From Ostreococcus lucimarinus (lineage: Eukaryota), in NCBI GenBank assembly GCA_000092065.1, contig CP000591.1: DNA of 64,000 nucleotides, one strand, 5' to 3'. The notes beneath the pieces were generated by a model. The model worked only from the letters and a program-made list of their open reading frames with translations. It ran no database searches and was not told the origin of the DNA. The position numbers were made by a program, and so were the translations under genes. Of this stretch, positions 32,625 to 49,494 are shown in pieces (the first letter of the stretch is position 1; each line of letters begins with the position of its first letter).

Positions 32625-33584
32625 TTACTCGGAACCCGGCACGAGGTGCGGCTCGAGCGCGGCGCGAGCGAACTCGGGCAGCACGAACGCCGCGGCGTGC
32701 ACTTGCGGGTTATAATAGCGCATCGGTTTCAGCGCGCTTTCATCGGCGGGTCGCGGAAATCGCTTGGCCTTGGTGAAATCCACCGTCGACCCGTCCGCCG
32801 CGGGTTTGCTGCACATCATGAAACCGATTTGTCCGCTCGGGTAAGTCGGTATCGTGGTGTACCCGTACGCCATGGACCCACCGACGAAAATACCCTTGCA
32901 CATCTTCGCCAAGTCCTCGATCAAATCGATGTGCAACCACACGCACTCGGCTTGCGTGCACACGACGCCGCCGGGCTTGAGCGCGCGGTGCATCTTTTTA
33001 AAGAACGCCTCCTCGAACAAAACGCTCGCCGGTCCGATCGGATCGCTCGAGTCGACGATGATGGCGTCGTACGTCCCCTCCTCCGCGTCCCCGACGTACT
33101 TGATCCCATCGCAAATATTCACCTCCACTCGCGCGTCGTCGAACCCCACCGCCATCGACGGCAAGAATTTCTTCGACATCTCCACCACCATCCCATCGAT
33201 CTCCGCGATCTCGATCCTTTCGATCGATCCGTGTCGCGTCACCTCCCTGAGCACGCCTCCATCGCCGCCACCGACGACGAGCACGCGTTTCGGTTCCTCG
33301 TTCAGCGCGCACAGCGGCAGGTGCGTTATCATCTCCTGGTACGCGAACTCGTCCCGCTCCGTCGCCTGAATCACCCCGTCCAGCACCAGCACGTTCCCGT
33401 ACGCCGAGTTTTTAAACACGTACACGTCTTGAAACTCGCTCCGTCCGCGGAACAGCTCCTCGTCGATCTTCAGCGACATCGCCTGGCCTTTCCACATTTC
33501 GCTCACCTCGCACAACCATCCCTCACCGCACGCGCCGATGCACTTGTCCGCGCTCTGCGGCGCGTCGTCGGCGTATTTATTCAT
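32625..33584 (-). CDS. SPDS: spermidine synthase
   Basis: In-frame ATG at 33584 of ORF 32625..34289. Motifs: [69 protein letters not shown] and [12 protein letters not shown]. Confidence 0.9.
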
Positions 33585-33756
33585 CCCTCGCGCGGTCGTC
33601 GCGCGGCGACGCGGCGCGCGGACGCGGAGCGCGCGGACGCGGAGCGCGCGGAGCGAAATCGCGTCTCGGAGTGGCGGCGCCGCGCCGCACAGCTCGACGC
33701 CGCGTCCGCGTCGCGTCGCGTCGCGCGCTCGCGTCGCGACGCGCACCGCGCGCGCG

Positions 33757-35883
33757 ATGGCGCTCACGACGTCGGTCGCGAGGGCGCGCGACGCGCGCGC
33801 GAGCGCCGATCGCGTCGTCGGTTTGGTCGGCGGTCTTCGCGTCGTCGTCGACGCGCTGCGCGAGCACGCCGCGGATGGACTCGCGACGAACGTCGCGCAC
33901 GTGCGCGAGGACGCGATGTACGTCGTGTTTCTCGCGGCGAGCGTGATCGGGTTCGGGACGGTGGCGAGCGGGGAGATGATGAGCCTGCGGCGACGACGGG
34001 ACAGGGCGCGCGCGGCGCTCAAGGAGTGCGCGACGATGTTGGATCTGAAGAGCAAAGAGACGAGCGGCGCGGCGGCGACGGCGGCGGTGGGGCGGAAAAC
34101 GCGCGACGCGGGACGGGGGAAGCGGACGCGCGAGATCGGGGTCGGGAAAGACTTTTGGAACGAGTTGGGATATCTGTTAAAGGTGGCGTTTCCCACGGCG
34201 GGGAGCCGAGGAGGGCAGTTGTTGGGCGCGCAGTTCACGCTGCTCGTCATGCGCACGCTGTTGACGGTCAGGGCGAATAAGGTGAACACGTTCTATTTGA
34301 CCAAGGCCATCTCGAGCGCGTCGTGGAAGTTTTGGGTGCGGTGGTTTTTCAACTTTGGCGGTTGGATGGCGAGCGGCGTGGTGGTGAACAGCGGGCTGCG
34401 ATACACCGAGAGTTTGATCACGATCGAACTCAGAGCGGCGTTGACGAAGAAGGCGCATAAGATGTACATGGAAAACAATAACTTTTACAAGACGGCGGTT
34501 TTGCGTCAAGGCGGGTTGGATAACGTCGATCAACGCATCGTGGCGGACATCGACGCCTTCGCCAAGGAGACGGCTTTCCTGTACGGGCACTCGTTCAAGC
34601 CCATTTTGGAGTTCACGCTGAGCTTGACCGAAGCCGCGAAGGAGTTGGGCTATTCTCGCCCGCTCGCGCTTTTCGCGTCACAAATCATCATCACCGGCGT
34701 TTTGCGATCCATCGCCCCGCGACTCGGACCGATGGTCGCTCGCGAAGCCGCGCTCGAGGGCGGTTTCCGCCACACGCACGCGCGCTTGATCGCTCACGCG
34801 GAGGAAATCGCCTTATTAGACGGGGGCAAACGCGAGATTGAGATTTTAGATGAAGGCTTGGATAATTTGGTCGTCACGCAGCGCTGGCATGCGCTGCAGC
34901 GTATTCGCAAGAGCGTCGCCGACAACGTATCCAAGTTCCAAGGCTTGCTCGTGGGCAGTATTTTCGTACACGTCCCGTTCATGATGAAGGCATCAGTGTC
35001 CGAAGGCGAGCGCATTTCATCCTTCCGAGCCACCGAGGAGCTCATGCTTCGATGCGGCGGCGCGTTCACCGAAGTGTTGCTTCTCGGCAAAAATCTCGAC
35101 GAACTCGCCGGATACACGCACCGGCTTTCGCAACTGTTCAAAACGTTGGATCTCGCGAGCAAGGAAGCGCGCGAAGACAAGGCTAAACTGGCTTCGGCAG
35201 GCGCTGACCACGCCGAAGGCTCGCCGATCGTGTTCGATAAAGTCACCGTAGGAGCGCCCGAGCCGGATGGCTCGCAACGCGTGTTGGTGAAGGACTTGAC
35301 GCTCGCCGTGGCGTCGGGTCAACACTTGTTGATAACTGGTCCGAATGGATGCGGAAAAACGTCATTGCTTCGCGTGTTGGCTGGATTATGGGCGCCCGTG
35401 TCCGGCACCGTCACCAGACCGTCTGGCGTATCCAGCATCATGTGGTTGCCGCAACGGCCGTACTTGTTGCAAGGATCGTTGCGCGATCAAGTCGTGTACC
35501 CGCGCGACGCGCGCACGGAGAAGATCGTCGACGCGCGCGTGAAGGAGTGTCTGATGATGGCTGGCCTGGCCAAATTCGTGGACGGCTCCATGAACGTTGG
35601 ATTAAACACGCGGCACTTGGAGTGGAACGATGTGTTGTCCGGCGGCGAGCGTCAGAGAATCGGTTTCGCCCGCCTTTACTATCACGCGCCAAAGTTTGCC
35701 ATTCTTGACGAAGCGACGAGCGCAATCAATCCAGACGAAGAGTCCAAGCTGTACGAACGTCTCATCGAAACCGACACCACCGTCGTGAGCATCGCGCACA
35801 GGCTCGAGCTTAGAAAATTCCACAAGTTGGAACTCAAAATCGCGGGCGACGGCGAAGGCGGTTTTCGAATCCTCAAACTTTAG
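33757..35883 (+). CDS. peroxisomal-type ABC half-transporter, subfamily D
   Basis: In-frame ATG at 33757 of ORF 33538..35883. It has an ABC_membrane_2-type TMD ([13 protein letters not shown]), Walker [19 protein letters not shown] and signature [30 protein letters not shown]. Confidence 0.85.
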
Positions 35884-35910: not shown

Positions 35911-36984
35911 TTAATGCGTCGACGTCGTCAAGTATGCGAACAACAGCATGGGCGCGCCGAAGAGGCCGACCATGGTGAGCATCGCCTGCGTGTTCAGCGC
36001 CTTGACTTCTTCTTCGTCGATTTCGCCCGCAAACTTTTCGTTCGCCATCTTGATCAGGTACTCGTCGTACGCGTCTAGTTTTGCGGCGTCCATGTAATCG
36101 AATAAGTCCGATTTCATCTTCTTGGAAGCCGTCGTCATCCCCCAAATCATTCGATCCGCTTGCTTGGACACGTTTCCGTACTGGTTTCCGATGCACCGAC
36201 GATACTGCTTCAACGCCTCATCTCGGCGCTGCAAGTTGTCCAGACAGATGGCGTAGTTGAAGATTATCCTCCCGCCCATCTCCGTCTTTTGCCCGATGCG
36301 ATCGAGCGCCCACGGCTCGAGCAAATCGAGCGCGTCTTGCATGTATCCTCGCTTCATCGCCTCGCCCGAACGCTCCAAAACCTCCCGCACCTCCGCGTAC
36401 TCCGCGTTCGTCAGCGTCATCCCCTGATCCTCGCGATATTTCGCCAATTTCTTCGCCACTCTCGCCCTTCGCGCCGCGATCGCCTCCTCGTCCTCCAACT
36501 CCTCCCGTTTAACGGTTCGTCCGCCGCCGTACGTCTTCGATATATCCGGCGGTCGCTCGAACACCCCCCACGTGCTCACCGACGGTTTATACACCGCGTC
36601 CTCCACGTCGTACCCCACCGCCTTCTCGTCCGCGTCGAACGGGTCGTAATCCCGGTCCCGCGTCAAGATGCGCACCGTCACCTCCCGTTTGCGCGTCGCC
36701 CCCGTCGCGCCGTCGCTCGCCGTCTCGCTCGCGAACGTCCCGTCCGTCGTCGACGCCTCCATCGCGTCGTCCCGATCGCCTCCGTCGCCCTCCGCGCGCG
36801 CGCGCTCCATCGCCGCCGCGTACTCGCGCGCCTTTTTCACGCGATCCTCCACCGACGCGCGCAGATCGATCCTCGCGTCCGCGTCCTCGCGCGGCGCCGC
36901 GCGCGCGCGAGAGCGACGCCGTCGCGCGACGCGCGTCGGCGCCCGCGGCCGCGCGACGCGCGCGACGCGCGCCGCGCGCGCCAT
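35911..36984 (-). CDS. hypothetical organelle-targeted protein with C-terminal TM helix
   Basis: ATG ORF of 357 aa. N-terminus: MARAARVARVARPRAP... (Arg/Ala-rich). Conserved-looking block: PSVSTWGVFERPPDISKTYGGGR. The middle is helical and the C-terminal anchor is MLTMVGLFGAPMLLFAYL. No family recognised. Confidence 0.55.
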   Translation of the reverse strand: MARAARVARVARPRAPTRVARRRRSRARAAPREDADARIDLRASVEDRVKKAREYAAAMERARAEGDGGDRDDAMEASTTDGTFASETASDGATGATRKREVTVRILTRDRDYDPFDADEKAVGYDVEDAVYKPSVSTWGVFERPPDISKTYGGGRTVKREELEDEEAIAARRARVAKKLAKYREDQGMTLTNAEYAEVREVLERSGEAMKRGYMQDALDLLEPWALDRIGQKTEMGGRIIFNYAICLDNLQRRDEALKQYRRCIGNQYGNVSKQADRMIWGMTTASKKMKSDLFDYMDAAKLDAYDEYLIKMANEKFAGEIDEEEVKALNTQAMLTMVGLFGAPMLLFAYLTTSTH

Positions 36985-37042
36985 CGCGCGCGCCGCTCTC
37001 GCGCGATCGCGCGCGCGCGACCGCGCGACGTTCGCGTCTCGA

Positions 37043-37108
37043 GGTTCGACGTCGAAACCGACGCGAGGTTCGATCGCGCGCGCTCGAACCTCGCGATCGC
37101 GGGTTCGA
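37043..37108. promoter_or_regulatory. cluster of five GGTTCGA / TCGA(A)ACC motifs including a perfect 11+11 inverted repeat
   Basis: GGTTCGA occurs at 37043, 37067 and 37102. The inverted form occurs at 37052 (TCGAAACC) and 37084 (TCGAACC). GCGAGGTTCGA-N10-TCGAACCTCGC spans 37063-37094. The cluster lies between divergent ATGs at 36984 and 37139. Confidence 0.6.
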
Positions 37109-37138
37109 TCGCGCGCGCGCCGACGTCACTGCGCGTCG

Positions 37139-37432
37139 ATGCCCGCGACCGGGACGGCGTCGTCGCGCGACGAGATCGTGCCCCCGCGACGAGGCGCGCG
37201 AAATCCATGGGTGCTCGTCGGTGCGGGCGCCACGGCGGCGGTGTTGCTCGCGGGATTCGTCGCGTTCAGGGCTGGGGACGCGCGCGCGTCGCAGCGGATG
37301 ATGCGCGCGCGAGTGCTCGCGCAGGGCGCGACGGTGGCGCTGATGGTGGCGACGTCCGCGGGAGGACTGTCGAGCGCGACGTCTTGGACGCTCGCGCGTC
37401 CCGGCGCGGGCGGGACGGCGGGCGAGGGGTGA
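37139..37432 (+). CDS. HIG1 (hypoxia-induced gene 1) domain protein
   Basis: In-frame ATG at 37139 of ORF 36668..37432. Sequence RNPWVLVGAGATAAVLLAGFVAFRAGDARASQRMMRARVLAQGATVALMV matches the HIG_1_N pattern (NP.V..G...T......F..G....SQ.MMR.RV.AQG.TV). Confidence 0.75.
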   Translation: MPATGTASSRDEIVPPRRGARNPWVLVGAGATAAVLLAGFVAFRAGDARASQRMMRARVLAQGATVALMVATSAGGLSSATSWTLARPGAGGTAGEG

Positions 37433-38424
37433 CGGACGCGCGGGCGAACGCGCGCGGGTTCGCGGCGAGCGCGACGACGACGCGCGGCGACGACGACGCG
37501 TCGACGTCGCGCGACGGAGGCGCGAGCGATGGTGGGGAGCGCGGGCGCGACGGTGACGCGAGAGACGCGCGCGCGAGGCGGGACGAGGAGTCGCGCGCGG
37601 TGCTGCGCGAACGCGCGCTGCGAGCGGCGTTGAAGCGCGTGCGCGAGCTGGGATGGACGGACGCCGCCGTCGACGCGGGATTGAGGGATTTGAATTTGTC
37701 GCCCGCGATGCGCGCGATCGTTCGCGGCGACGCGGGGGCGGGCGCGAGGGACTCGGGACCGGGCGACGGGCTCGCGGGGGAGTTGGCGGGATACTTTGAG
37801 GAGTGCGCGGACGCGGCGTTTCACGCGAAGGTCGTCGCCGAGGGCGAGACGCTGCGCGCGATGAAGTCGCGCGAGCGCGTGAAGTGGCTGATGCGCGCGC
37901 GTTTGGAGATGATCGAGTCCAAGCTCGATTCGTGGCCGCGCGCGCTCGCCGCGATGGCGACGCCGCGGTACGCGATGACGACGCTTCGGCGTCGCGCCGC
38001 GCTCGCGGATTTCATCGCCGACGCCGCGGACGTCGACGCCTTGGACGTGCTTCCGGATTCGTTGGATACGTTTCGTTGGCACGCCGAACGCGCCGCGATG
38101 CTCGCGCTGTACGCCGCCACCGAGTTACGCTTGTTGACGGATTCGAGCAAGGATCGTCGCAAGACGTGGGCCTTTCTCGACGCCCGCGTCGACGACATCG
38201 CGCGATCCCGCGTCGACGTCCTCGAGCTCAAGTCGTACATCGACGTCTTCGCGCGCGACGCCGACTTGACGACGCTCGGCGCGTCGTTCGCGAGCAAAGA
38301 CGCGCTCGCCGCGGCGTTCGCGCCCGTCGCCGACGTCTTCGCTCGCGCGTCTCGCGCCGTCTTCTCGACCCCTTCGCGCGACGCGTCCGAGCGCGACCCG
38401 CCGCGCGACTCGCCCGATCGATAG
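37207..38424 (+). CDS. COQ9: ubiquinone biosynthesis protein COQ9 (start uncertain; conserved part from about 37590)
   Basis: RERALRAALKRVRELGWTDAAVDAGLRDLNLS... aligns with human [32 protein letters not shown]. Further matches: SWPRALAAMATP and WHAERAAMLALYAATELRLLTDSSKDRRKTWAFLDARVDD. The only in-frame ATG upstream of the domain is 37207, which lies inside the HIG1 CDS in another frame. Confidence 0.6.
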   Translation: MGARRCGRHGGGVARGIRRVQGWGRARVAADDARASARAGRDGGADGGDVRGRTVERDVLDARASRRGRDGGRGVTDARANARGFAASATTTRGDDDASTSRDGGASDGGERGRDGDARDARARRDEESRAVLRERALRAALKRVRELGWTDAAVDAGLRDLNLSPAMRAIVRGDAGAGARDSGPGDGLAGELAGYFEECADAAFHAKVVAEGETLRAMKSRERVKWLMRARLEMIESKLDSWPRALAAMATPRYAMTTLRRRAALADFIADAADVDALDVLPDSLDTFRWHAERAAMLALYAATELRLLTDSSKDRRKTWAFLDARVDDIARSRVDVLELKSYIDVFARDADLTTLGASFASKDALAAAFAPVADVFARASRAVFSTPSRDASERDPPRDSPDR

Positions 38425-38583
38425 TTTACCCGGTAGTCTTAATGCTCACGCGCGCGCCTTTAACCGACTTCGCGCGCGCTCGCCGTCGCGTTTTGTGTCG
38501 CTTCGGTCGCTCCACTCCCGGGTGTTTCACGCCCGAATCGTCGCGCCGCCGCGCGCCGCGCGTCACGCGCGCGCGCTCGAGCG

Positions 38584-41500
38584 ATGTCGTTCGACCTGCG
38601 CTGCGCCGTCCTGTGCTACGCCCTCGCCGGCGTCGCGCACGAGCTCGCGCACGTCCTCGCGCACGCCGCGCTCGCGCTCGCGAAGCGTCGCGGGTCGGTC
38701 GCCGTCTTCGACGCGTGCGCCGCGCTCGACGCGCGCGCGTCGCCGTCGTCGCTCGCGGCGACGCTCGCGCGCGCGCTCGGACGGTGGAGCGCGTTCGCGG
38801 ACGCGCTCGACGACGCGTCGTGCGCGAACGCGCGCGCGATCGTGCGATGGGCGGGCGCGCTGGCGAGCCTGGGCGCGGCGGCGGCGGCGACGACGCGAAC
38901 GCGAGGCGACAAAAGCGGAACGAGCGCGGCGCTGCGAGTCGCGTGCTGGGCGACGGTCCTGGACGCGGTGTGCACGGACGTGCTGGACGCGCTGCCGCGC
39001 GCGCGAGGGACGGTGCTGTGCGGGAACTTTGGGATTATTTTGATAAACGCGGCGTGGTGCGAGAGCGAACGCGGGAAGCGGGCGTTTGATTTGTTGGAGA
39101 AGATGGTGTACGTGACGATGATGCGAGGGGCGCAGAGCGGTGGAGTCGTGACGTTCGACGAGTGCCGTGAGAAGGCGCGAGGGGAGGGTGCGGCTGTGGC
39201 GCTGCGCGGCGCGAGAAGTCGCGTGGTGAACATGAAGCGCACGGATTTGAGCAAGCTCGTGCGAGCAAAGGCGGAACGCGACTGCGGAGGGGCGAAGATG
39301 GGTCGACAAAACGTCACGCGCATGATCGTCGGCCACACGCGGTTCGCGACGACGTCCAAGGCTACGTTTGACGGCACGCATCCGCATCAGTGGTCGCCGC
39401 CGCAGCAGTGTCTCGTGTACGGGCAAAAACAGAAAACGCCCGGGCCGACGCGCGTCGGCGTGGAGAATTACATCACGCACAACGGCGATTTCGACTTTTA
39501 CCAAATCAACAAAAACTGGTACGAGCTCGGTGAGATGCAGCGGTGGTTAGAAATCGCCACGGGACATCCCATGCCGAGCGTGGTGGATTCTGCCGCCATC
39601 GCTGGCGTTATCGATTTACTCAGAGCGCAGGGGAGCTTCGCGCTCGCCGCGAGATTTGCGGTGTGCGTGGGGCTGAACACGAGCGACGCGTCGAAGGACG
39701 CCCCCGTGCCAACGCTCGCGAAATTCGAAGAAATCGCGCGGTATTTTGAAAACGCTTTGGATGCGTCGCTGAGTGCAGGTAAACATACCGTTCGCGAGCT
39801 CGGCTTTCAGGCGAGCACGCGCGAGTTGCTCACGGAAAAGGTCGTATCCGCGCTCGAGGGCGAAGGCAAAGCAGCGATCGAGTGCATCAACTATTACATC
39901 GATGAAGAAATGGGATCGAGTCTACGACACTTTGTGCGATCGACGATCGATGCATTCTTCGACAACGATAGCTTATTCGTGACGAAGACATTTCTCGCCA
40001 ACGCGAAAGGTTCGTTTGGTTTGATGGTGACAAACTCTTTAGATGCGCATCGGCAGCTTTGCGTCGCCGCGCGGGGGCAAACTATAAGCATCGCGTTCTA
40101 CCCGAAGAAGGGTTTGATTTGTTACGGCTCTGAACAAGCCGCCGTTAAAGCGGGTTTGTCGATCCCGACACCAGGTGGTGACGTGTTGGCGAGCGTTCAC
40201 GGCGGTGAATTCGGCGACGACAACGCCGCCGTGCGTCTCGACTTGGACGATTTGAATGGCGAAATTTGTTTGTTAGATTGGGAAGACGGCGACGAACCCG
40301 CGGTGTCGTTCCCGAACTCGCACTTGGAGCAATACCCACTCATGGGTGGCAAAGTTACCGTCGTCCTCGCCGCTGAAGGTACATCTGGCGTGAGCAAGTC
40401 AACCATCGGAACGCCTGCGCAGAGTCTCGTCATGCGCAAGCCGAGCCTACACGTGGGCGTTAGCGTGGACAAGAAGCTGTTTCGCCGAATGACTCGACTC
40501 GAAGGGAACGACCTCATCAAGCCGCTTTTACCCGATCGAGAGGACTTGGTGCTGCACGATATTCACGATATTCCCAAAATTTTGCGAAACATTCAGGAAG
40601 ACTGGCAAAATCGCCCACAGGCCACGATTAGTCTCAATCGACTCACGGCTTGGAACCTTGCGCGTTGTTTGCGGCGACGTCTCGATCGCCGACTCAACAG
40701 TACGACAAAGTCATCGCGTTCAATAGATGTCGTCGTCACCGGTTGTGAAGTGTCGCTTTGGCTAGCCGAACAATTTGCGGCTGATTTACAGCAAGCGTTC
40801 CCCCGGCTGACGGTGAAAGCTGTGAGCTCGAATAAAATACTCGGTTTGTTCGGCCAAGACATTCCCATCCCAACAGTGGGATTCCCAGACTCAAAGAAGA
40901 ACGATGACTTTACGGACTCTGTCGTCATTGTCGTCAGTCACTCTGGCGGGACGTTTGCGCCACTCGCGACTTCGAATCTCCTCGTGAGCTCCACGAGCTC
41001 CATCTTCGTCGTCGCCAGCGAATGGGACACACAAATCGGCAAACAACTCAGAGCGATCAAGTCTGATGGGGCCTTCTGCAGCCGTATCTTTAGCACAGAT
41101 GTTGGCGTCCGACCAGCTGAGCCGTGTTCGGTGAGCGTTGCGGCGACGCAGCAACTTTTGACGCAAATTTTCATGCACATGTCACTCGTGATTCTCGGTA
41201 ACGCCGATTACCGCAAGTACGCGGGCGCCGTGGTTACGAAGCACGACTTGGCGGAACTCGAAAGGTGCAATCAAATGAACATCACCGCGCTGGAAGAAAT
41301 AGTGGGAGTGAAAGCGACGGGCGAAAAGGTCGACTCGTCGACGGAGCGTAGTCTTCGAGCGCAAGGCGACGAGTGGTCCGATCACGTTCTCGAAGGCGTC
41401 AAGGGGTGGATGATGTCGTTTGCATACATCGTCGGCACCGTAACGGCGGGATACCCGCTCATCACCGGCGTTGCCGCCGCTTGTGGACTCGCGGCGACTT

Positions 41501-42900
41501 GGGCGTTTTACCTCACACGATTCTTCGACGCGTTGATTTACGTGTTTCTTCCTCAAATCAACATAACCATTATTCGTTTGGTGCAAGGACGAAACTTGCG
41601 TCATCGCATGACGGGTCGAACGGTTGTCATCGGCGACGTTCCGTGGGTCGCACAGGCTGCAGATGCGTTTCTGTCAAAGATTTTTGCATGCTCGTACTCT
41701 GCCGCTGGGTTGAACGTTCTCAGTGGTAATCCAAACGATCATCTCGTGCACCGACACACGCACCGCGTCGTTCGCGGCGCATTGCTCGTGGTCGGTCGTC
41801 CCGACGGTAGGCTCGCCGCGCTAACGTCCGCTGAGGCGACGACATCGCTCTCGCTCGCCCAAGCAAGTTCTATCCAAAGTTACGGCGGAACGTGCGAATC
41901 GATCACGATCGGGCACTCACCGTATAAGCTTCCACTATCAAAGAATGGTATCTTCCTCAAACGACACCGCCCGATGTACTTGTGCGAGAAGCTCGTGCTC
42001 GAGCGCGAGGGGGAAAAGAGTTTAGACGGTCGCTCGCCCGGCTCCTTGCTCGGCGTGTACAACAAGTATCACGAGGAAGGGGCGGAACTCTCTGTACATT
42101 CGCTTTCGCGTCGAAACGCGGTGCAAGTTCTCACAGCTTCGAGGATTAAGGCGGATAGACAGAAGGGTAATTTGCGCTCGGTGTTCGACGAAATCGACGT
42201 CAACCGCGACGGCAAACTATGCCTCGCTGAGTTCACGCAAGCGTACAAGAAAGTGGACGAATCGCTCACAGACGCACAAATAGCGAAGCTTTTCCGCGAT
42301 GCAGACGTTGACAACAGCGGTACATTGGACTACGATGAGTTTTGCGAAGTCATGAACCTTCCCGAAATGGACATGTTGAACATTCTCGAGGCAGATGCTC
42401 GAAACGAGGAAGGTTTGCTCATGGTGGAGCCGTCGCACGAAGATTATTTCGGGCAATCCATTCGACGAAGCGCACCGAAAAAGATCAAGGCGTACACTCT
42501 GGTGGAGTCTCAAGAGTTCAGCATGAGCTTGTACGAATCACGAATCGCGTCTTTGCAGCGCTTCGTCTCCATGACGGTGATGTTTCACCAAATGGGTGAC
42601 CGGGCTCAAAAGTTTTGGCGAAACGTCTCTTTCGGATATCTGGGATATCGCATGGATCGCACGCACAGTATCATGCGTATCGCCACCACGGCCTCACCCG
42701 TGAGCGGCGCTGAAGTGCGCGACCGGCGTCATTTTATCGCCCTCGTCACCGCGTTCAACAACGCGCTCGGCGTCATCGACAACTCCGGCCACATTCTTCT
42801 CTCTCGAAGACGCACGGAAAGCTACCGCCTCACATCGCGGCAAAAGTCCGCCGCGAGGCTTTCGCGTCAGAGCTCCGTCGCTAGCGCCACTGGCGCGTGA
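38584..42900 (+). CDS. 1438-aa multidomain protein: class-II glutamine amidotransferase + SIS domains (GlmS/GFAT-like) + EF-hand pair
   Basis: GATase-2 features: LCGNFGIIL (Cys146), MRGAQSGGVV and GHTRFATTSKATFDGTHPHQW. SIS features: VVVTGCEVSLWLAEQF and VVIVVSHSGGTFAPLA. EF-hands: DVNRDGKLCLAEF and DVDNSGTLDYDEF. The 145-aa N-terminal extension is hydrophobic and contains HELAH. Confidence 0.8.
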   Translation: MSFDLRCAVLCYALAGVAHELAHVLAHAALALAKRRGSVAVFDACAALDARASPSSLAATLARALGRWSAFADALDDASCANARAIVRWAGALASLGAAAAATTRTRGDKSGTSAALRVACWATVLDAVCTDVLDALPRARGTVLCGNFGIILINAAWCESERGKRAFDLLEKMVYVTMMRGAQSGGVVTFDECREKARGEGAAVALRGARSRVVNMKRTDLSKLVRAKAERDCGGAKMGRQNVTRMIVGHTRFATTSKATFDGTHPHQWSPPQQCLVYGQKQKTPGPTRVGVENYITHNGDFDFYQINKNWYELGEMQRWLEIATGHPMPSVVDSAAIAGVIDLLRAQGSFALAARFAVCVGLNTSDASKDAPVPTLAKFEEIARYFENALDASLSAGKHTVRELGFQASTRELLTEKVVSALEGEGKAAIECINYYIDEEMGSSLRHFVRSTIDAFFDNDSLFVTKTFLANAKGSFGLMVTNSLDAHRQLCVAARGQTISIAFYPKKGLICYGSEQAAVKAGLSIPTPGGDVLASVHGGEFGDDNAAVRLDLDDLNGEICLLDWEDGDEPAVSFPNSHLEQYPLMGGKVTVVLAAEGTSGVSKSTIGTPAQSLVMRKPSLHVGVSVDKKLFRRMTRLEGNDLIKPLLPDREDLVLHDIHDIPKILRNIQEDWQNRPQATISLNRLTAWNLARCLRRRLDRRLNSTTKSSRSIDVVVTGCEVSLWLAEQFAADLQQAFPRLTVKAVSSNKILGLFGQDIPIPTVGFPDSKKNDDFTDSVVIVVSHSGGTFAPLATSNLLVSSTSSIFVVASEWDTQIGKQLRAIKSDGAFCSRIFSTDVGVRPAEPCSVSVAATQQLLTQIFMHMSLVILGNADYRKYAGAVVTKHDLAELERCNQMNITALEEIVGVKATGEKVDSSTERSLRAQGDEWSDHVLEGVKGWMMSFAYIVGTVTAGYPLITGVAAACGLAATWAFYLTRFFDALIYVFLPQINITIIRLVQGRNLRHRMTGRTVVIGDVPWVAQAADAFLSKIFACSYSAAGLNVLSGNPNDHLVHRHTHRVVRGALLVVGRPDGRLAALTSAEATTSLSLAQASSIQSYGGTCESITIGHSPYKLPLSKNGIFLKRHRPMYLCEKLVLEREGEKSLDGRSPGSLLGVYNKYHEEGAELSVHSLSRRNAVQVLTASRIKADRQKGNLRSVFDEIDVNRDGKLCLAEFTQAYKKVDESLTDAQIAKLFRDADVDNSGTLDYDEFCEVMNLPEMDMLNILEADARNEEGLLMVEPSHEDYFGQSIRRSAPKKIKAYTLVESQEFSMSLYESRIASLQRFVSMTVMFHQMGDRAQKFWRNVSFGYLGYRMDRTHSIMRIATTASPVSGAEVRDRRHFIALVTAFNNALGVIDNSGHILLSRRRTESYRLTSRQKSAARLSRQSSVASATGA

Positions 42901-42990: not shown

Positions 42991-44370
42991 ATGCGCCGCC
43001 GCGCCCTCGCGCGCGCGCTCGCGCGCTGGTGCGACGCGCCGTTGTCGTCGTCTCGTCCGTCGCCTCGCGCGCGAACGATCGCCCGCGCGTCGTCGACGAA
43101 GCCAAACGACGACGACGAAAACTTTGTCCCGAGCGCCAAAGCGCGCGCCTTCATGCGCGCGTTAAACCTTCGCGACGACGATCTCACGACCGCTCGCGAC
43201 GAGGTGCGACCGAGGGACAAAGCTTACGTCGATCGGCGTCGCGTGCGCGCGGAGGGAGGACGCGGCGGCGGCGGGGTGGCGTCGTTCGCGATGGATGGCG
43301 GTTCGCGGCGGCGACGCGGCGCCGACGGCGGCGACGGCGGTAAGGGCGGCGACGTCGTTCTCGTGGCATGCGCGCGGACGAAAGGGCTGGGAGACGTGAA
43401 GAATTTATTGCGAGGCGCGACGGGAGGTGCGGGAGGGGCGCAGGGACGGATCGGGAGTCGAGGCGCGGACGCGCGCGCGCGCGTGCCGCTAGGGACCATC
43501 GTGTGGCGCGAACTCGCGGACGGCGACGACGACGGCGGCGGCGGCGCGATCGATTTCACGCACTGGGGCACGGATTCACCGGTATCGTCGACGGCGGACG
43601 CGTCGGAAAGCGACGATGAATCGCGAGTGAATGAGAATGGTTGGACGCGGCCGCGCGGGCTCAGTAGAGGCGAATGGCTCGTCGTCGCCGACTTGACGCG
43701 CGACGGACAAACGTGCGTGCTCGCCCGAGGCGGGAAGGGAGGTAAAGGGAATAAACGCATGCCCGTTGGACGCGAAGCCGGGACGCGCGAGCCGGGCGCT
43801 CCGGGTGAAGAAGGTAAATTCGTGTTGGAGTTGAAAACCGTCGCCGACGTCGGGCTGGTGGGACTGCCGAACGCGGGAAAAAGCACGCTCTTGCGCGCTT
43901 TGTCCAACGCGACGCCGCGCGTCGGGTCTTACGCGTTCACCACGATGCAACCACAACTTGGCGCGGTATCGGCAACGGACGGCGAGACGATCACGCTGGC
44001 AGACATTCCCGGCTTGATCAAAGGGGCACACGAAAACAAAGGGTTGGGGCATAATTTCTTGCGACACGTCGAGCGATGCGAGGCGTTGGCGTACGTGGTA
44101 GATTTATCGAGCGGCGACGGCGTCAAACCTTGGGATGCGTTGGATATCCTCAAGCGCGAGTTGGAGGAGTACTTACCAGGACTTTCTAAACGCCCTGGGT
44201 TCATCGTCGCGACGAAGACGGATTTGCCGCACACGGCGCGGACGTTGAAGGCGCTTCGAGCGCGCACGGCGCCTACGCCCGTCTTTGCTGTGTCAGCGGC
44301 GAATCGCGAAGGCACGGACGAGGTTCTTCGCGTGTTTGAGAACGAAATCATAGGAAATAGACGAGTGTAG
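42991..44370 (+). CDS. OBG: Obg-family GTPase (organellar type)
   Basis: Obg fold: YVDRRRVRAEGGRGGGGVASF...GGDGGKGGDVVLV. G domain: DVGLVGLPNAGKSTLL, SYAFTTMQPQLG, ADIPGLIKGAHENKGLG and ATKTD. Confidence 0.9.
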   Translation: MRRRALARALARWCDAPLSSSRPSPRARTIARASSTKPNDDDENFVPSAKARAFMRALNLRDDDLTTARDEVRPRDKAYVDRRRVRAEGGRGGGGVASFAMDGGSRRRRGADGGDGGKGGDVVLVACARTKGLGDVKNLLRGATGGAGGAQGRIGSRGADARARVPLGTIVWRELADGDDDGGGGAIDFTHWGTDSPVSSTADASESDDESRVNENGWTRPRGLSRGEWLVVADLTRDGQTCVLARGGKGGKGNKRMPVGREAGTREPGAPGEEGKFVLELKTVADVGLVGLPNAGKSTLLRALSNATPRVGSYAFTTMQPQLGAVSATDGETITLADIPGLIKGAHENKGLGHNFLRHVERCEALAYVVDLSSGDGVKPWDALDILKRELEEYLPGLSKRPGFIVATKTDLPHTARTLKALRARTAPTPVFAVSAANREGTDEVLRVFENEIIGNRRV

Positions 44371-44421: not shown

Positions 44422-45798
44422 TTACGCCGATTGCCGCGTTGGACGCGCGCTTCGCGCATTGGGCGCGCGCTCCTTTTTCGACGACGATTTCCGAGCGGGC
44501 GCGCGCGCCTTACTCTCACGAGTACTCCCTTCCAATGGCGAAAGCTCAGCATCTCGTTCTCGCTCTGCCGCCGCGTTCAGCTTGCGTTGCCACGAAATCA
44601 AGTACGCCGCCGTCGTCGTGACGGCGACGATCCACGCGATGACTACGTGACGAGGCCAAGGAGCGGTGAATTTACCGCGACCGTTTTTCACGACGACCAA
44701 AAATTCAACGATGAGCACCGCGAGCGCTAACCACGCGTTCGGGCCGAGCTTGGCCTCCCCCACGTCCGGGGTTTCGATGAAGACGTAATATTCGCGAATC
44801 GCGATGTTAGACATGGCGAACCACAACCCGAGACGGTACAAGCAAAAGTTGTGCGACGGCGGCACGTGCAAGACGAACTTCATGAAGAACAGGTTCAAGT
44901 CAAACACCAACCCACAAAACACGAGAAACGCGCACTTCAAGAACCGACTGGGCGATCCGGTGGGACGCCACGTGTAGTGATCGACGCTCGCCGGCGTGAG
45001 CGACGTCAAAACCGTCTTCAGCGCTCCGCGCACCGGCGAACGCGGCGGCTCCTTCGCCGCCGCCGATCGAGACGACGCCTTCTTCCCGCTCCAATCGTGA
45101 AATTTCCCACGCATGAACTTCACGAGCCACATTCCCGCACAGATGCCCAACAAGTTACAAATCATCACGTCCCACACCCACATGTCCCACCAGCACTCGT
45201 TAAAATTGGGTTGCCAGTGCTCAAACGTCAGCTCGCACAGCTCGAACGCGATTGAATACGCCCACAACAACCCCCAATCCCTGATCGCCACCGCCTTACC
45301 GAACCATCCCAGCACGTGAGCCACGGTAAACTCATCGAACAGCGTTTCGTACACGATTCCAAACGATCCGCTTCGATGTCCCGGCGTGTACACGCGGCAA
45401 TCGCCGCCGTAGCTCCTCGTCGGCAGCGGCGTCCCCAAGTCGTCCCAAAAGAATTTCAGCATCTTTTGCGCGTCCGCGGGCGTTTGAAACAGCAGCACTA
45501 TCAACGCCAGAAGGTACATCGTGAACGCCGCGTGCACCACCTTCCACACCGCCGCGTGCGGTCGCGTCATGTGCGTCGCCGGTCCCTGCAGCGCGCCGTA
45601 CGCCAGGTACGCGCCCAGCGCGCCCGTCGCGCCTCGACGGATCCCGTCCTCCGTCGTCCATCGCGCGTCGTTCGCGTCGTTCGCGAACGCGTGCGTGGCG
45701 ACCGCCAGCGCGACCGCGCCGCACGCGAGCATCGTGAGCGTGTGCGGCGAGCGCGCGAGTCGCGCGACCGTCGACGTGCTATTCTCGGCCCATCGCAT
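44422..45798 (-). CDS. phosphatidylserine synthase (base-exchange type, PTDSS/PSS1-like)
   Basis: In-frame ATG at 45798 of ORF 44422..46653. Sequence: TRPHAAVWKVVHAAFTMYLL, DEFTVAHVLGWFGKAVAIRDWGLLWAYSIAFELCELTFEHWQPNFNECWWDMWVWDVMICN. Confidence 0.85.
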   Translation of the reverse strand: MRWAENSTSTVARLARSPHTLTMLACGAVALAVATHAFANDANDARWTTEDGIRRGATGALGAYLAYGALQGPATHMTRPHAAVWKVVHAAFTMYLLALIVLLFQTPADAQKMLKFFWDDLGTPLPTRSYGGDCRVYTPGHRSGSFGIVYETLFDEFTVAHVLGWFGKAVAIRDWGLLWAYSIAFELCELTFEHWQPNFNECWWDMWVWDVMICNLLGICAGMWLVKFMRGKFHDWSGKKASSRSAAAKEPPRSPVRGALKTVLTSLTPASVDHYTWRPTGSPSRFLKCAFLVFCGLVFDLNLFFMKFVLHVPPSHNFCLYRLGLWFAMSNIAIREYYVFIETPDVGEAKLGPNAWLALAVLIVEFLVVVKNGRGKFTAPWPRHVVIAWIVAVTTTAAYLISWQRKLNAAAERERDAELSPLEGSTRESKARAPARKSSSKKERAPNARSARPTRQSA

Positions 45799-46015
45799 CT
45801 TCGCGCGCGCGTCGCGTCGAGCGCGTCGCGCGCCCGGCGCGGCGCGCGGTGCGTTCGCGCGCGGCGCGCGGTGCGTTCGCGCGCGCGGTGCGCGTCGAGC
45901 GTTCGCGCGCGTCGGCCGTCGCGCGTCTCGAAGTGAAGATTTGTCGTCGACGGTGCATCGCGTCCACGCGCGCGCGAACGCGACCGCCACACGCGCGCGC
46001 GCGCGCGACGACGCG

Positions 46016-48295
46016 ATGCACCGCGCGCGCGACGACGCGCGCGACGACGCGCGCGACGACGGCGACGACGCGCGCGACGACGCGCGCGACGGCGCGAACG
46101 ATTGGATGCGAGCGATTGAAAATCTCCAACCGACGACGCCGCGCGGCTGCGCCGCGTGCGCGGTGCTGGTCGCGATCGCGCTCAAGGCGACGACGGCGAA
46201 CGAGTCGTCGTTCGCGCTCGGCGCGCTCGTCGGGTGCGCGGGAACGCTCGCGGCGCAGGTGGCGGCGGTGACGCGCGCGGTGCGAGCGAACGCGGCGGCG
46301 ACGGCGGCGCGAGAGGTCGCGGACGCGGCGGCGCGGGAGGAGTTCGATCGCGGGCGCGACGACGACGCGAGAAACGGGGACGAGGGGCGGAACGCGGGCG
46401 TCGGGGCGACGACGAGCGTCGGGGAGGCGCCGCATTCGGGATGGATCGTGGTCGCGCGAGCGAACGCGAAGAGCGCGAAGGGCGCGGCGGCGAGCGGCGA
46501 GAAGAAGTTTGCGCGATTGACGCGCGATGGGAGGTTGCAGCTCGCGAATGAGCGCGGTGGAGAGGTGGTGGACGTGATCGATCTGTGCGGGTGCGATGTG
46601 GCGTTGACGAAGTTTCCGGGATTGGAAAAGCCGACGGAGTTGCGATGGCACAAGTCGACGCCGATGGTGGTGCGTCACGGCGATCGCGCGGTGTATCGAT
46701 CGATGAAGACGGTGTGGCTGTTTGCGTTGTCGTCACCGGCAAAAGAGGCGTGGTTCGTGGCGCTGATGACGTGCGTGGAGCGTTTGCGCGCGGAGAGTGG
46801 CGGCGCCGAAGCGGACGCGCGCGCGCTCGACCGCATGCGCGTCGAGGCGGATGATTTCGCAAAGTTTACGCAAGAGACGAAGAAATACAAGGAAGAATCC
46901 GCGCGGCGAGACGCACACGCGCAAGGCACGCACTCTGCGGGCGCGGGTACGGCTGGGGCGACGATAAACGCTCTTGGATCGAGGCTGCTATTCGACATGT
47001 TTCGCGACGAGCGTTGGCAACTCGAGCAAAAGGAAAAGTTGGTCAACAAGATGAATAACGCTCCGGGCACGCCCAAGTTTGTCGGTACGTTTGAGATCAC
47101 GCATATCGACTTCGGATCAACGGTGCCGCACATCATTAGCGCTCGCGTGCCGAGCTTTAGCTCGTCGAGCGCGCCCTGGGATGGCGCCTCTATGCCGGGG
47201 CGCGGCTTCTCGCACGCGCTCGAACTCGACGTCGAGTACGTTGGTCGGGCGACAATGACCGTGCAGACGCGCGTGGATTTGTCCAAGTACGCGCAAGACA
47301 TGGAGAGTGAGGCGAATAACGTGTCGAACGCGGAGTCCGTCGACGAAATCGCGCGGAGTTTTTCGAGTATAAAAAAGGCGGCGGCTCGCGAGGCGGCGAG
47401 AGTTGTCACCTCGCTTTCTGATACACTTAGCGCGACGCCGTTGCGCTTCACGCTAACCCTGAAGAAGTGTCAGGGCGTCATGCGTCTGTGGATTCCACCG
47501 CCCCCGGGCGATCGTTTGTGGTGGGGGTTGATCAAGGAGCCGGACATCGATCTTGAAATCATCCCCGAGCTCGGCGCCGCGGCGATCTCTCATGAGGGTA
47601 TCGCCTCGCGTGTCTCGCAATTCCTTCGCAACCTATTCGTTGCCGACATGCACTCCCAACTTCTGCTGCCGAACTGCGTCGCTGAGCCTTGGAAGGAGCT
47701 TCGACCGTTCGTAAGCGCGATGGAGTTGTCGCTCGCCGAGGCGGCGACGGAGGAGTTCTCGGCCTTGCAGCCGCCTTCGCCTTCGCCCTCACCAATCAAC
47801 ACTGAACGTGAACGTCCAGCTGAACGTGACCGTCCAGCAGTATCGAACGTGACGACGCCAGCGTCGACTCCCAGACCCTCGTTCGACACCCCCACGTCAC
47901 CACCGCCCGAGCAAGTGATGGAGAGTCCACCTGTGTCGCCGAAAGCGTCCGTCGCGCCCATCGCCGCCGTGAGCGCGTCGCTCCCATCCTCCCCCACCGC
48001 CACCATCACCGGTCTCGCGACGACGACATCTACCGAGCCGCCACCCAAACGTCCAGCATCCGAAGACATCCAAGCCAAGCCAACGTCGTCTTTCTTCGCC
48101 CAGGCGAAATCGTTCACGCAAAAGCTCGAACGTTCCTTCGGCGACGACTTCAAGGATTTCACCGCCGCCGTCAAAGACGCCGGCGTCGCCGGCGGATTGA
48201 AGCACGTCTCCAAGAACATCGAAAAAGTTATCGCGCCGACGTCAAGCAAAGATCCCGCGCAACCATCCTCTTCGAATGTGTTAAAGAACGATTAG
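46016..48295 (+). CDS. TM + PH-like + SMP lipid-transfer domain protein (TEX2/Nvj2-like)
   Basis: In-frame ATG at 46016 of ORF 45521..48295. PH-like region: SGWIVVARAN...KKFARLTRDGRLQL...WLFALSSPAKEAWFVALM. SMP-like region: INALGSRLLFDMFRDERWQ...FVGTFEITHIDFGSTVPHIISARVP, compared with human TEX2 FMNELTLTELDMGVAVPKILQAFKP. The C-terminus is Pro/Ser-rich. Confidence 0.65.
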   Translation: MHRARDDARDDARDDGDDARDDARDGANDWMRAIENLQPTTPRGCAACAVLVAIALKATTANESSFALGALVGCAGTLAAQVAAVTRAVRANAAATAAREVADAAAREEFDRGRDDDARNGDEGRNAGVGATTSVGEAPHSGWIVVARANAKSAKGAAASGEKKFARLTRDGRLQLANERGGEVVDVIDLCGCDVALTKFPGLEKPTELRWHKSTPMVVRHGDRAVYRSMKTVWLFALSSPAKEAWFVALMTCVERLRAESGGAEADARALDRMRVEADDFAKFTQETKKYKEESARRDAHAQGTHSAGAGTAGATINALGSRLLFDMFRDERWQLEQKEKLVNKMNNAPGTPKFVGTFEITHIDFGSTVPHIISARVPSFSSSSAPWDGASMPGRGFSHALELDVEYVGRATMTVQTRVDLSKYAQDMESEANNVSNAESVDEIARSFSSIKKAAAREAARVVTSLSDTLSATPLRFTLTLKKCQGVMRLWIPPPPGDRLWWGLIKEPDIDLEIIPELGAAAISHEGIASRVSQFLRNLFVADMHSQLLLPNCVAEPWKELRPFVSAMELSLAEAATEEFSALQPPSPSPSPINTERERPAERDRPAVSNVTTPASTPRPSFDTPTSPPPEQVMESPPVSPKASVAPIAAVSASLPSSPTATITGLATTTSTEPPPKRPASEDIQAKPTSSFFAQAKSFTQKLERSFGDDFKDFTAAVKDAGVAGGLKHVSKNIEKVIAPTSSKDPAQPSSSNVLKND

Positions 48296-48477: not shown

Positions 48478-49494
48478 ATGGCTGCGGCGAAACGAAAACC
48501 ATCCGCGAGCGCCGCGTCGATGAAATCCTTCGACGACGACGTGCCGAGCGAGCGCGACGCGCTGAAAACGTGGAACGACATGGACGACGCCGCGCTCGAG
48601 GTCGAGATCGCGAAATATCGCGACGCGGTGGCGCGGTTGAAGGCGGAGATCGTCGCGAAGGATGGCGATCGCGCGATCGATGGGGTGGACTGGTTCGAGT
48701 ACGAACGAGACGCGACGACGACGGTCGACGGCGCCGATGGCGGCGCCGCGGGAGGTGAGAACGACGACGAGGATGAAGAGCTTGGAAATATCGATGACAT
48801 CGATCCGCGGGAGTGGATGGTGCCGAAACAGTGCATCCCGGTGCACGCAAACGTGACGACGTACGACTGGAAGCCGATGTACGAACACGAACAGTTCGAC
48901 GTCATCATGATGGACCCGCCGTGGCAGTTGGCCACGGCGAATCCGACGCGCGGGGTGAGTTTGGGATACTCGCAATTGACGGATCAGCACATCGCAGACT
49001 TGCCGTTGCCGCAATTGCAAAAGAATGGGTTGTTGTTCGTGTGGGTGATCAACGCGAAGTATCAGTGGTGCCTCAATCAGTTTAAAAAATGGGGCTACGA
49101 ATTCGTGGACGAGATCGTGTGGGTGAAGGTGACGAAAACGAGACGACTGGCGAAGTCACACGGCTTTTATTTGCAGCACGCGAAGGAAGTGTGCCTGGTC
49201 GCCCGTCGAGGAGACGCGCCGCCGGGATTGAAGAACAGAGCCATCGGGAGCGATATCATCTTCGCTCCTCGTCGCGGGCAATCGCAAAAGCCGACGGAGA
49301 TTTACGAGCTCATCGAAGAGCTCGTGCCGAACGGGCGGTACTTGGAGATTTTTGCGCGTAAGAACAACCTGCGCGACTATTGGGTGTCCGTCGGGAACGA
49401 GGTCACGGGGACTGGTTTGCCTCCGGACGACGTCAAGGCGTTCGAAGAGCGCGGGCACATTCCGTCCGCGAAATACGGCGCGTCTAATCGATAG
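48478..49494 (+). CDS. MT-A70 family N6-adenosine methyltransferase (METTL3/IME4-like catalytic core)
   Basis: Sequence: FDVIMMDPPWQL (DPPW catalytic motif), GLLFVWV, WGYEFVDEIVWVK, HAKEVCLVARRG and SQKPTEIYELIE. The protein is only 338 aa. Confidence 0.85.
   Translation: MAAAKRKPSASAASMKSFDDDVPSERDALKTWNDMDDAALEVEIAKYRDAVARLKAEIVAKDGDRAIDGVDWFEYERDATTTVDGADGGAAGGENDDEDEELGNIDDIDPREWMVPKQCIPVHANVTTYDWKPMYEHEQFDVIMMDPPWQLATANPTRGVSLGYSQLTDQHIADLPLPQLQKNGLLFVWVINAKYQWCLNQFKKWGYEFVDEIVWVKVTKTRRLAKSHGFYLQHAKEVCLVARRGDAPPGLKNRAIGSDIIFAPRRGQSQKPTEIYELIEELVPNGRYLEIFARKNNLRDYWVSVGNEVTGTGLPPDDVKAFEERGHIPSAKYGASNR

Follow-up and report, generated by a model that had tools for sequence, protein, structure and literature searches.

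The locus considered here raises two questions: what kind of enzyme is a 1438-residue protein that joins amidotransferase-like and EF-hand sequences, and how could a cysteine that lies 145 residues into the chain act as an N-terminal nucleophile (Ntn)? The protein is encoded in a 64,000-nucleotide stretch of Ostreococcus lucimarinus DNA (GenBank assembly GCA_000092065.1, contig CP000591.1; hereafter the window) by one uninterrupted open reading frame (ORF), 38584..42900 on the plus strand, running from ATG to TGA. An earlier note on this DNA, made from the letters alone, had claimed a single ORF of 1438 codons, and its coordinates, start and stop are all as described there. We find that the protein represents a widespread, unannotated variant of the GlmS-type amidotransferases, which combines a structured membrane domain, a putative pro-domain, with a Ca2+ module specific to algae.

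The GlmS-like core

Curated profiles recognise little of this protein. Pfam searches with the whole protein and with four sub-fragments returned no GATase or SIS match even at E<=10, six diverse family members gave a single SIS match (E=0.022) and no GATase match, and the window protein scored 10.3 bits against TIGR01135 glmS (cut-off 418) and 11.8 bits against PRK00331 (cut-off 381). A phmmer search of PDB sequences with the whole protein yielded only matches of the calmodulin or calcium-dependent protein kinase (CDPK) type. The EF-hands were the sole detection by profile, and the glutaminase/SIS homology became visible only by fold. AlphaFold models built from family alignments covered residues 1-1170 with a mean predicted local distance difference test score (pLDDT) of 86.6 and a predicted template modelling score (pTM) of 0.78, and residues 640-1438 with 85.0 and 0.84, respectively. 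When used in Foldseek they retrieved E. coli GlmS (E=3.4e-14) and human GFAT-1 (about 1e-13), with both domains matched, and by this comparison the models contain a class II glutaminase fold and a double-SIS fold in the GlmS arrangement.

Domain-wise hhalign comparison with E. coli GlmS, which was usable for the glutaminase and first SIS (SIS1) regions, placed the motifs in GlmS order (E=0.0048 and E=0.0065); a whole-family comparison gave a 21-column match with a probability of 2%, and the alignment of the second SIS region (SIS2) was rejected as spurious because it contradicts the fold order. The paired motifs are C146 (Cys1 in E. coli GlmS), RGAQSGG (RGYDSAG), GHTRFAT (AHTRWAT), HPH (HPH), HNGD (HNGI), VDSAAIAG (TDTEVIAH), KGSFG (RGAYG), SHSGGTFAPLA (SQSGETADTLA) and VAAT (VAST), and all of these residues are invariant in 35 of 35 sequences from green algae, diatoms, a pelagophyte, a cryptophyte and dinoflagellates. 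The same alignment and set of sequences assign the glutaminase catalytic residues Cys1, Arg26, Arg73, Asn98, Gly99 and Asp123 to C146, R181, R253, N300, G301 and D335, all invariant, and the catalytic residues beyond the cysteine are therefore not degenerate. The GlmS/GFAT-like core of class II glutaminase plus double SIS that the earlier note had proposed thus holds by fold and by motif-level alignment, but not in the curated Pfam or NCBIfam profiles.

Despite this likeness, the window protein differs from GlmS/GFAT (EC 2.6.1.16), to which it is only about 10-14% identical and all of whose curated profiles it fails, by a helical insertion of about 120 residues in the glutaminase, a hydrophobic hairpin between the SIS subdomains, a membrane domain ahead of the cysteine, and the EF-hands. 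Other double-SIS proteins, namely the archaeal GlcN6P deaminase GlmD, the FrlB/FraB deglycases and AgaS, lack both the glutaminase domain and membrane segments. The membrane association that had been suggested from hydrophobic segments between the domains holds; such segments occur at two places, the N-terminal domain and a single central insertion (about 919-1001), the latter modelled as helices 919-955, 959-966, 972-987 and 989-1001. Kyte-Doolittle peaks are borderline in the Ala-rich window protein (1.4-1.7) and clearer in homologues (1.6-2.4), and the peak at the central insertion recurs in all homologues, including short forms in which the cysteine directly follows the initiator methionine (Met-Cys forms).

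The membrane domain ahead of Cys146 and its proposed removal

The string AHELAHVLAH that had been noticed upstream of the cysteine is indeed present, with HELAH at residues 19-23, and the cysteine of LCGNFGII is residue 146 (codon at nt 39019-39021). What the earlier note missed is that the HExxH recurs throughout the family, as part of a conserved membrane domain. The domain is modelled with a pLDDT of about 80-96 within its helices and below 50 at 137-145. H19, E20, H23, R67, S95 and D132 are invariant in it (H19, E20, H23 and D132 in 35/35), and the motifs VRHxGWxxS and AAxxTAxEAxxTD recur. In 90 full-length homologues G-x-x-HExxH stands ahead of an invariant CGNFG. A profile of the N-terminal domain, searched against 1.84 billion representatives, retrieved 429 proteins; the best 150 of these all end in the Cys motif, and no stand-alone relative of the domain was found among them. 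HExxH occurs in 142 of 143 new representative N-termini, and both HExxH and CGNFG in 135 of them, 98-202 residues apart, which is far beyond chance.

The patterns GHTRFAT[ST]S and R[IV]A[TS]TASP[VI]S, when scanned against bacterial genomes, led to four loci. One of them (L005) is a genuine Nostoc contig encoding a 1232-residue family protein, which aligns with the window protein over 146-1113 (BLASTP E=5e-90) and again over the C-terminal stretch 1316-1378 (E=8e-7). As a query, the Nostoc protein returned 408 clusters; the 120 of these that were listed are cyanobacterial wherever an organism is named, about 1200 residues long and devoid of Pfam domains. The 104 aligned cyanobacterial long forms have the cysteine at 150-260, after an N-terminal membrane domain of about 190 residues with the motifs HG[LF]GH (HELGH in four), NILExR and SSLSD, then F-[NY]-CGNFG; Gly replaces the Glu of HExxH in 97 of 105 cyanobacterial domains. 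Profile alignment of the algal and cyanobacterial domains (hhalign probability 86-91%, E about 1e-6) sets HGxGH on HExxH and SD on TD, and indicates that the two are homologous.

At least 34 cyanobacterial relatives begin with MCGNFG (14 among the clusters listed and 20 from a later search), and one of these has no earlier start between its ATG and the preceding stop, with GAGAGG upstream of the ATG. In Leptolyngbya sp. NIES-2104 a long form (P0390) and a short paralogue (P0476, an N-terminally truncated call) appear to coexist. In a second bacterial clade, RCGNEG is preceded by about 640 soluble residues. An Elusimicrobia metagenome-assembled genome (L004:4314-12971, CAZFYO010000007.1) encodes a 2885-residue ORF with a GlmS-like core, its cysteine at 1241, a membrane segment with CPBP-like EEWIFR, FALYH and HVAYN (EExxxR, FxxxH, HxxxN) directly before that cysteine, and a C-terminal Glucosamine_iso (NagB/Pgl) domain (E=1.5e-7). 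Its N-terminal region of about 1200 residues shows a weak LysM match, a weak ChaN/Tiki match and a Pro/Thr-rich linker. A CPBP or Tiki/ChaN protease ahead of the cysteine in these other bacteria is no more than a lead, since the matches stayed sub-threshold (Rce1-like E=3.3; Cofac_haem_bdg E=0.005-0.18).

Catalysis by class II amidotransferases depends on an N-terminal Cys with its amino group free. Cys146 is internal in the translated product. The Met-Cys relatives provide the strongest support that the cysteine needs unmasking: as they follow the Ntn rule, the long forms would be proenzymes. The earlier note had left a choice between propeptide processing and a non-catalytic sensor role, and the invariance of Cys146, Arg181, Arg253, Asn300-Gly301 and Asp335 leads us to favour the former. 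A nucleophile that is not the first translated residue is also found in B. subtilis PurF and in glutamate synthase (MEROPS C44). Propeptides of that type are short (about 11-42 residues) and unstructured, whereas the segment ahead of the cysteine in the window family is a conserved multi-helix membrane domain of 100-200 residues with invariant His, Glu, His and Asp. Since CGN[FIE]G follows no extension at all, a membrane domain, or long unrelated regions, the catalytic element shared by all forms would be the glutaminase fold itself, and self-cleavage by this fold is most likely. In class II amidotransferases the residues ahead of the nucleophile are removed autocatalytically (PMC9140057).

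In a more elaborate scheme, which we consider unlikely, the N-terminal domain would itself be an intramembrane zinc protease of the site-2 type and, by a single-turnover self-cut between Leu145 and Cys146, would switch the amidotransferase on. The near-universal HExxH, with its catalytic-type Glu and its consistent distance from CGNFG, speaks for such a maturase, as does the association of the domain with the Cys motif among the best 150 of the 429 profile matches. D132 is invariant and lies 14 residues from the scissile bond, with the disordered linker in between, and the flanking residues are conserved and hydrophobic (in algal-type N-termini P2 is Phe or Leu, P1 mostly Phe, Tyr or Leu). Cyanobacteria with HGxGH have a conserved Glu in the nearby 'NILE', which is missing from two of the four HELGH forms (one clade only), and the CPBP-like motifs of the Elusimicrobia protein likewise stand right before the cysteine. 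As in site-2 proteases (M50), HExxH (HExGH in four cyanobacterial members) lies within a hydrophobic helix, an invariant Asp lies in a later one, and some three helices make up a compact core; unlike them, the family has no significant profile match, lacks NxxPxxxLDG, mostly carries HGxGH in cyanobacteria and is fused to its presumed substrate. Peptidase_M50 (PF02163) reached E=0.27 in only two of 23 N-terminal domains, the cyanobacterial domains had no match in Pfam, and the domain profile had none among PDB sequences. Further against the maturase, a Gly occupies the position of the Glu in most cyanobacterial homologues, self-processing is already established for class II amidotransferases, and the existence of Met-Cys forms and of forms with long soluble extensions means that cleavage does not need the N-terminal domain in general. 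An Asn-lyase (intein-like) cut at the cyanobacterial 'FN-C' was also rejected as a general mechanism: 39 of 105 domains have Tyr at P1, and the algae Phe, Tyr or Leu.

The calcium module, the second half-reaction and the role of the protein

Pfam EF-hand_7 matches residues 1197-1257 (E=2.6e-16, 60.2 bits against a cut-off of 30), and both 12-residue loops, DVNRDGKLCLAE (1205-1216) and DVDNSGTLDYDE (1241-1252), are canonical, with Asp at position 1, Asp, Asn or Ser at 3 and 5, Gly at 6 and Glu at 12; profile and loop residues alike bear out the EF-hand pair of the earlier note. The pair falls precisely within the tether that joins the catalytic core to a C-terminal helix and tail, and the algal segment 1114-1315 that contains it stands in place of a 36-residue linker in the Nostoc protein. 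The C-terminal 190 or so residues, formerly called unassigned, in fact include a conserved helix as well as the tail motif RIATTASPVSG; algae and cyanobacteria have the two in common, as seen in the C-terminal BLASTP match and in the bacterial loci recovered with the tail pattern. Tail residues 1362-1368 have a pLDDT below 50, and the module contains invariant residues; low-confidence modelling of part of RIATTASPVSG is as would be expected for a mobile active-site lid. Ca2+-dependent positioning of this tail would be the most economical mechanism. In CDPKs, too, canonical EF-hands are linked in cis to an enzyme, and the best PDB sequence match is a CDPK regulatory region; unlike CDPKs, the window protein has one pair rather than four hands, inserted between core and C-terminal tail, and is of the amidotransferase class. 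Algal homologues of about 1200 residues, considered as possible EF-hand-less forms, proved to be truncated gene calls.

In the SIS region, the phosphate loop (S785, S787, T790) and K1032 are conserved. The SIS2 helix was aligned by fold order and the shared '...SY' end, a topology-based comparison rather than a residue-level superposition; in this alignment K1032 would correspond to Lys485 and A1035 to Glu488, and H1053 may match His504. The Glu488 position holds Ala throughout the algae (35/35) and Ser in cyanobacteria, and the same comparison revealed no apparent equivalent of Lys603 in the family, such that the GlmS isomerase residues Glu488, His504 and Lys603 are not found as a set. The C-terminal tail also differs from that of GlmS/GFAT. 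The protein is therefore GlmS-like in fold but not a GlmS orthologue. For the same reasons the label 'Ca2+-linked hexosamine enzyme', along the lines of the earlier note, exceeds the evidence, and with Ala at the Glu488 position the acceptor is not necessarily fructose-6-phosphate. The NagB/Pgl-type fusion of the Elusimicrobia relative points to hexose-phosphate chemistry.

Taken together, we envisage a membrane-embedded, GlmS-like proenzyme amidotransferase with a Ca2+-tuned tail, an account to which, as a whole, we give about an even chance of being right. The protein would be made with a 145-residue N-terminal membrane domain bearing a metal-type site (H19-E20-x-x-H23...D132), and a cut between Leu145 and Cys146, most simply by the glutaminase fold itself, as in MEROPS C44 amidotransferases, would free the amino group of Cys146 as catalytic base. 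The mature enzyme, held in the membrane through its central hairpin, would hydrolyse glutamine and pass the ammonia to a SIS site that binds a phosphorylated, sugar-like acceptor, and the alga-specific EF-hand insertion probably renders tail positioning, and hence activity, Ca2+-dependent. Several points weigh against this account. The maturation step and the role given to the EF-hands are both inferred, self-cleavage gives no reason for the invariance of H19, E20, H23 and D132 in algae, and membrane topology comes from hydropathy only. The second half-reaction is left without its GlmS residues, the genes beside the cyanobacterial homologues are signalling rather than metabolic genes, and, because the curated GATase and SIS profiles fail, the homology of the core rests on predicted structures and short motifs.

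The signalling genes just mentioned adjoin the family gene in four of five cyanobacterial contexts (L005:7036-12292, L008:9494-10453, L012:1580-6577, L013:4538-6931) and encode Tll0287-like/HAMP histidine kinases, multi-REC/PAS proteins and a Ser/Thr kinase fused to a periplasmic-binding domain. They keep a regulatory role in play, in which the protein would be an uncleaved membrane sensor or regulator that relays glutamine or sugar-phosphate status to Ca2+ signalling in algae and to two-component systems in cyanobacteria. We think this rather improbable. It fits the loss of the Glu488 equivalent, the link of the algal form to Ca2+ through the EF-hands, and the absence of glm or nag genes nearby in the cyanobacterial contexts examined; the adjacency itself is weak evidence, as large cyanobacterial genomes are rich in signalling genes. 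A mere sensor is harder to reconcile with glutaminase catalytic residues and dozens of polar SIS-region residues that are invariant from green algae to dinoflagellates, or with the canonical Ntn start kept in the Met-Cys forms.

We regard it as distinctly improbable that the protein is the organism's own GFAT (glucosamine-6-phosphate synthase) with added decorations, feeding the hexosamine pathway. GlmS/GFAT is the best structural match over both domains, the phosphate-binding loop is kept and one of the bacterial relatives carries a fused NagB/Pgl-type domain. However, the TIGR01135 score and the identity to GlmS are both very low, all members have Ala or Ser at the Glu488 position and no Lys603 was found, and the family is confined to cyanobacteria, a few other bacteria and algae. 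Furthermore, diatoms that carry this family reportedly also retain a canonical GFAT for chitin synthesis.

Gene model, distribution and significance

Two independent read-archive assemblies both carry the identical 1438-residue protein with the same neighbours (ABCD-type transporter, HIG1, COQ9, Obg), as is typical of a compact nuclear locus in a eukaryote. About 90 full-length homologues align colinearly with the window protein across 93-99% of its length, and some of them are complete transcriptome ORFs with both HExxH and CGNFG, which bears out the single-gene reading. The whole architecture is present in complete transcriptome ORFs, which excludes an artefact of exon structure. Contrary to the earlier note, which saw no AG acceptor just upstream of the cysteine, an AG dinucleotide lies 12 nt 5' of the Cys146 codon; it is irrelevant because the region ahead of Cys146 is conserved as protein. 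We give practically no credence to an erroneous gene model (a row of separate genes, or a gene with an intron that starts with a Met-Cys exon), since, although spurious long ORFs arise in high-GC genomes and many ORFs overlap at this locus, the N-terminal domain is kept as protein across phyla, its motif occurs with CGNFG in complete transcriptome ORFs, and independent assemblies call the same product. The coordinates of the features are collected in Table 1.

Table 1. Features of the amidotransferase-like gene, in window coordinates.
Feature	Position (nt)	Strand	Remarks
Complete single-exon ORF	38584..42900	+	1438 residues plus TGA; identical protein on two assemblies; colinear homologues
N-terminal membrane domain	38584..39018	+	residues 1-145; helices 5-35, 54-66, 78-105, 112-133; disordered linker 137-145
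HELAH (H19-E20-x-x-H23)	38638..38652	+	putative metal site in helix 1
D132	38977..38979	+	candidate third ligand of putative metal site
CGNFG, Cys146 Ntn nucleophile	39019..39033	+	invariant; aligns to Cys1 of E. coli GlmS; Leu145-Cys146 predicted maturation site
Class II (Ntn) glutaminase domain	39019..40383	+	residues 146 to ~600; ~120-residue helical insertion at ~345-470
First SIS subdomain	40546..41298	+	~655-905; phosphate-loop motif SHSGGT at 785-790, nt 40936-40953
Hydrophobic helical insertion between SIS subdomains	41338..41586	+	~919-1001; predicted membrane hairpin
Second SIS subdomain	41611..42018	+	~1010-1145; invariant K1032, N1049, D1052, H1053, H1056, GRPDGRL, E1105-G-H1111
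EF-hand pair	42172..42357	+	residues 1197-1258; loops 1205-1216, 1241-1252
Conserved C-terminal module	42514..42717	+	long helix 1311-1348; tail RIATTASPVSG 1365-1375, nt 42676-42708

The N-termini of homologues support a start at 38584. The protein called in a close strain (P0001, with 100% identity across the local alignment) has 1486 residues, because 48 further codons upstream are in frame there; in the window, the corresponding codons (38440-38583) sit in a different frame (ORF 37803..39089), and an indel polymorphism therefore lies directly 5' of the ATG. The GC content of the window is about 0.62, and many long overlapping ORFs lie on both strands of 36160-39504, for example the Arg/Ala-rich minus-strand ORF 38563..39504 (313 residues), which we take to be by-products of high GC and not genes. 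Neighbouring genes in the window encode an ABCD-type half transporter (33538-35883), an Obg GTPase (42991-44370), a phosphatidylserine synthase (44425-46050, minus strand) and an MT-A70 methyltransferase (48478-49494); this neighbourhood is ordinary eukaryotic housekeeping, and no functional tie to the amidotransferase-like gene was seen in it.

A homology search with the window protein returned 292 clusters. Named algal members come from diatoms, Pelagophyceae, Symbiodiniaceae, Pycnococcus, Bathycoccus and the cryptophyte Baffinella, and are labelled hypothetical or after the EF-hand; the closest named relative, from Bathycoccus prasinos, belongs to a cluster 66% identical to the window protein, and identity between green algae, diatoms and dinoflagellates is 45-50%. 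Literature searches, including searches on motif strings, found no paper on the family. Some cyanobacterial members (P0356, P0357, P0368, P0382, P0424, P0436) carry extra fusions, including WD40/beta-propeller arrays (about 1590 residues) or DUF8082; the Oculatella protein P0436 bears the source name 'restriction endonuclease, SacI family', apparently in error. One contig assigned to a Verrucomicrobiaceae bin (L006:7689-12107) contains a eukaryote-type copy (HETCH...CGNFG) whose ORF breaks and resumes as across an intron, and is probably a mis-binned eukaryotic contig. The family is probably cyanobacterial in origin and inherited by plastid-bearing algae, with the EF-hands as an algal insertion.

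The hosts are ecologically dominant phytoplankton (Mamiellophyceae, diatoms, pelagophytes, Symbiodiniaceae and cryptophytes), and some of the 292 algal and 408 cyanobacterial clusters hold hundreds of ocean-metagenome members. The Met-Cys and long forms, apparently together in one cyanobacterial genome, constitute a natural experiment on Ntn maturation. A bolder and doubtful reading is that the HExxH/His-His-Asp membrane domain acts as a dedicated intramembrane maturase or gate that sets when the amidotransferase is unmasked, either by cutting its own chain at the Cys or by permitting that cut, with the EF-hands gating the C-terminal tail at the active site; such a membrane amidotransferase, armed by proteolysis and switched by Ca2+, would make a novel aminated phospho-metabolite or report carbon/nitrogen status in abundant marine phytoplankton and cyanobacteria. 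If the protein is an active amidotransferase, it would be the first class II member with a structured membrane pro-domain and direct Ca2+ input, and would mark a so far unrecognised nitrogen-transfer reaction at the membrane.

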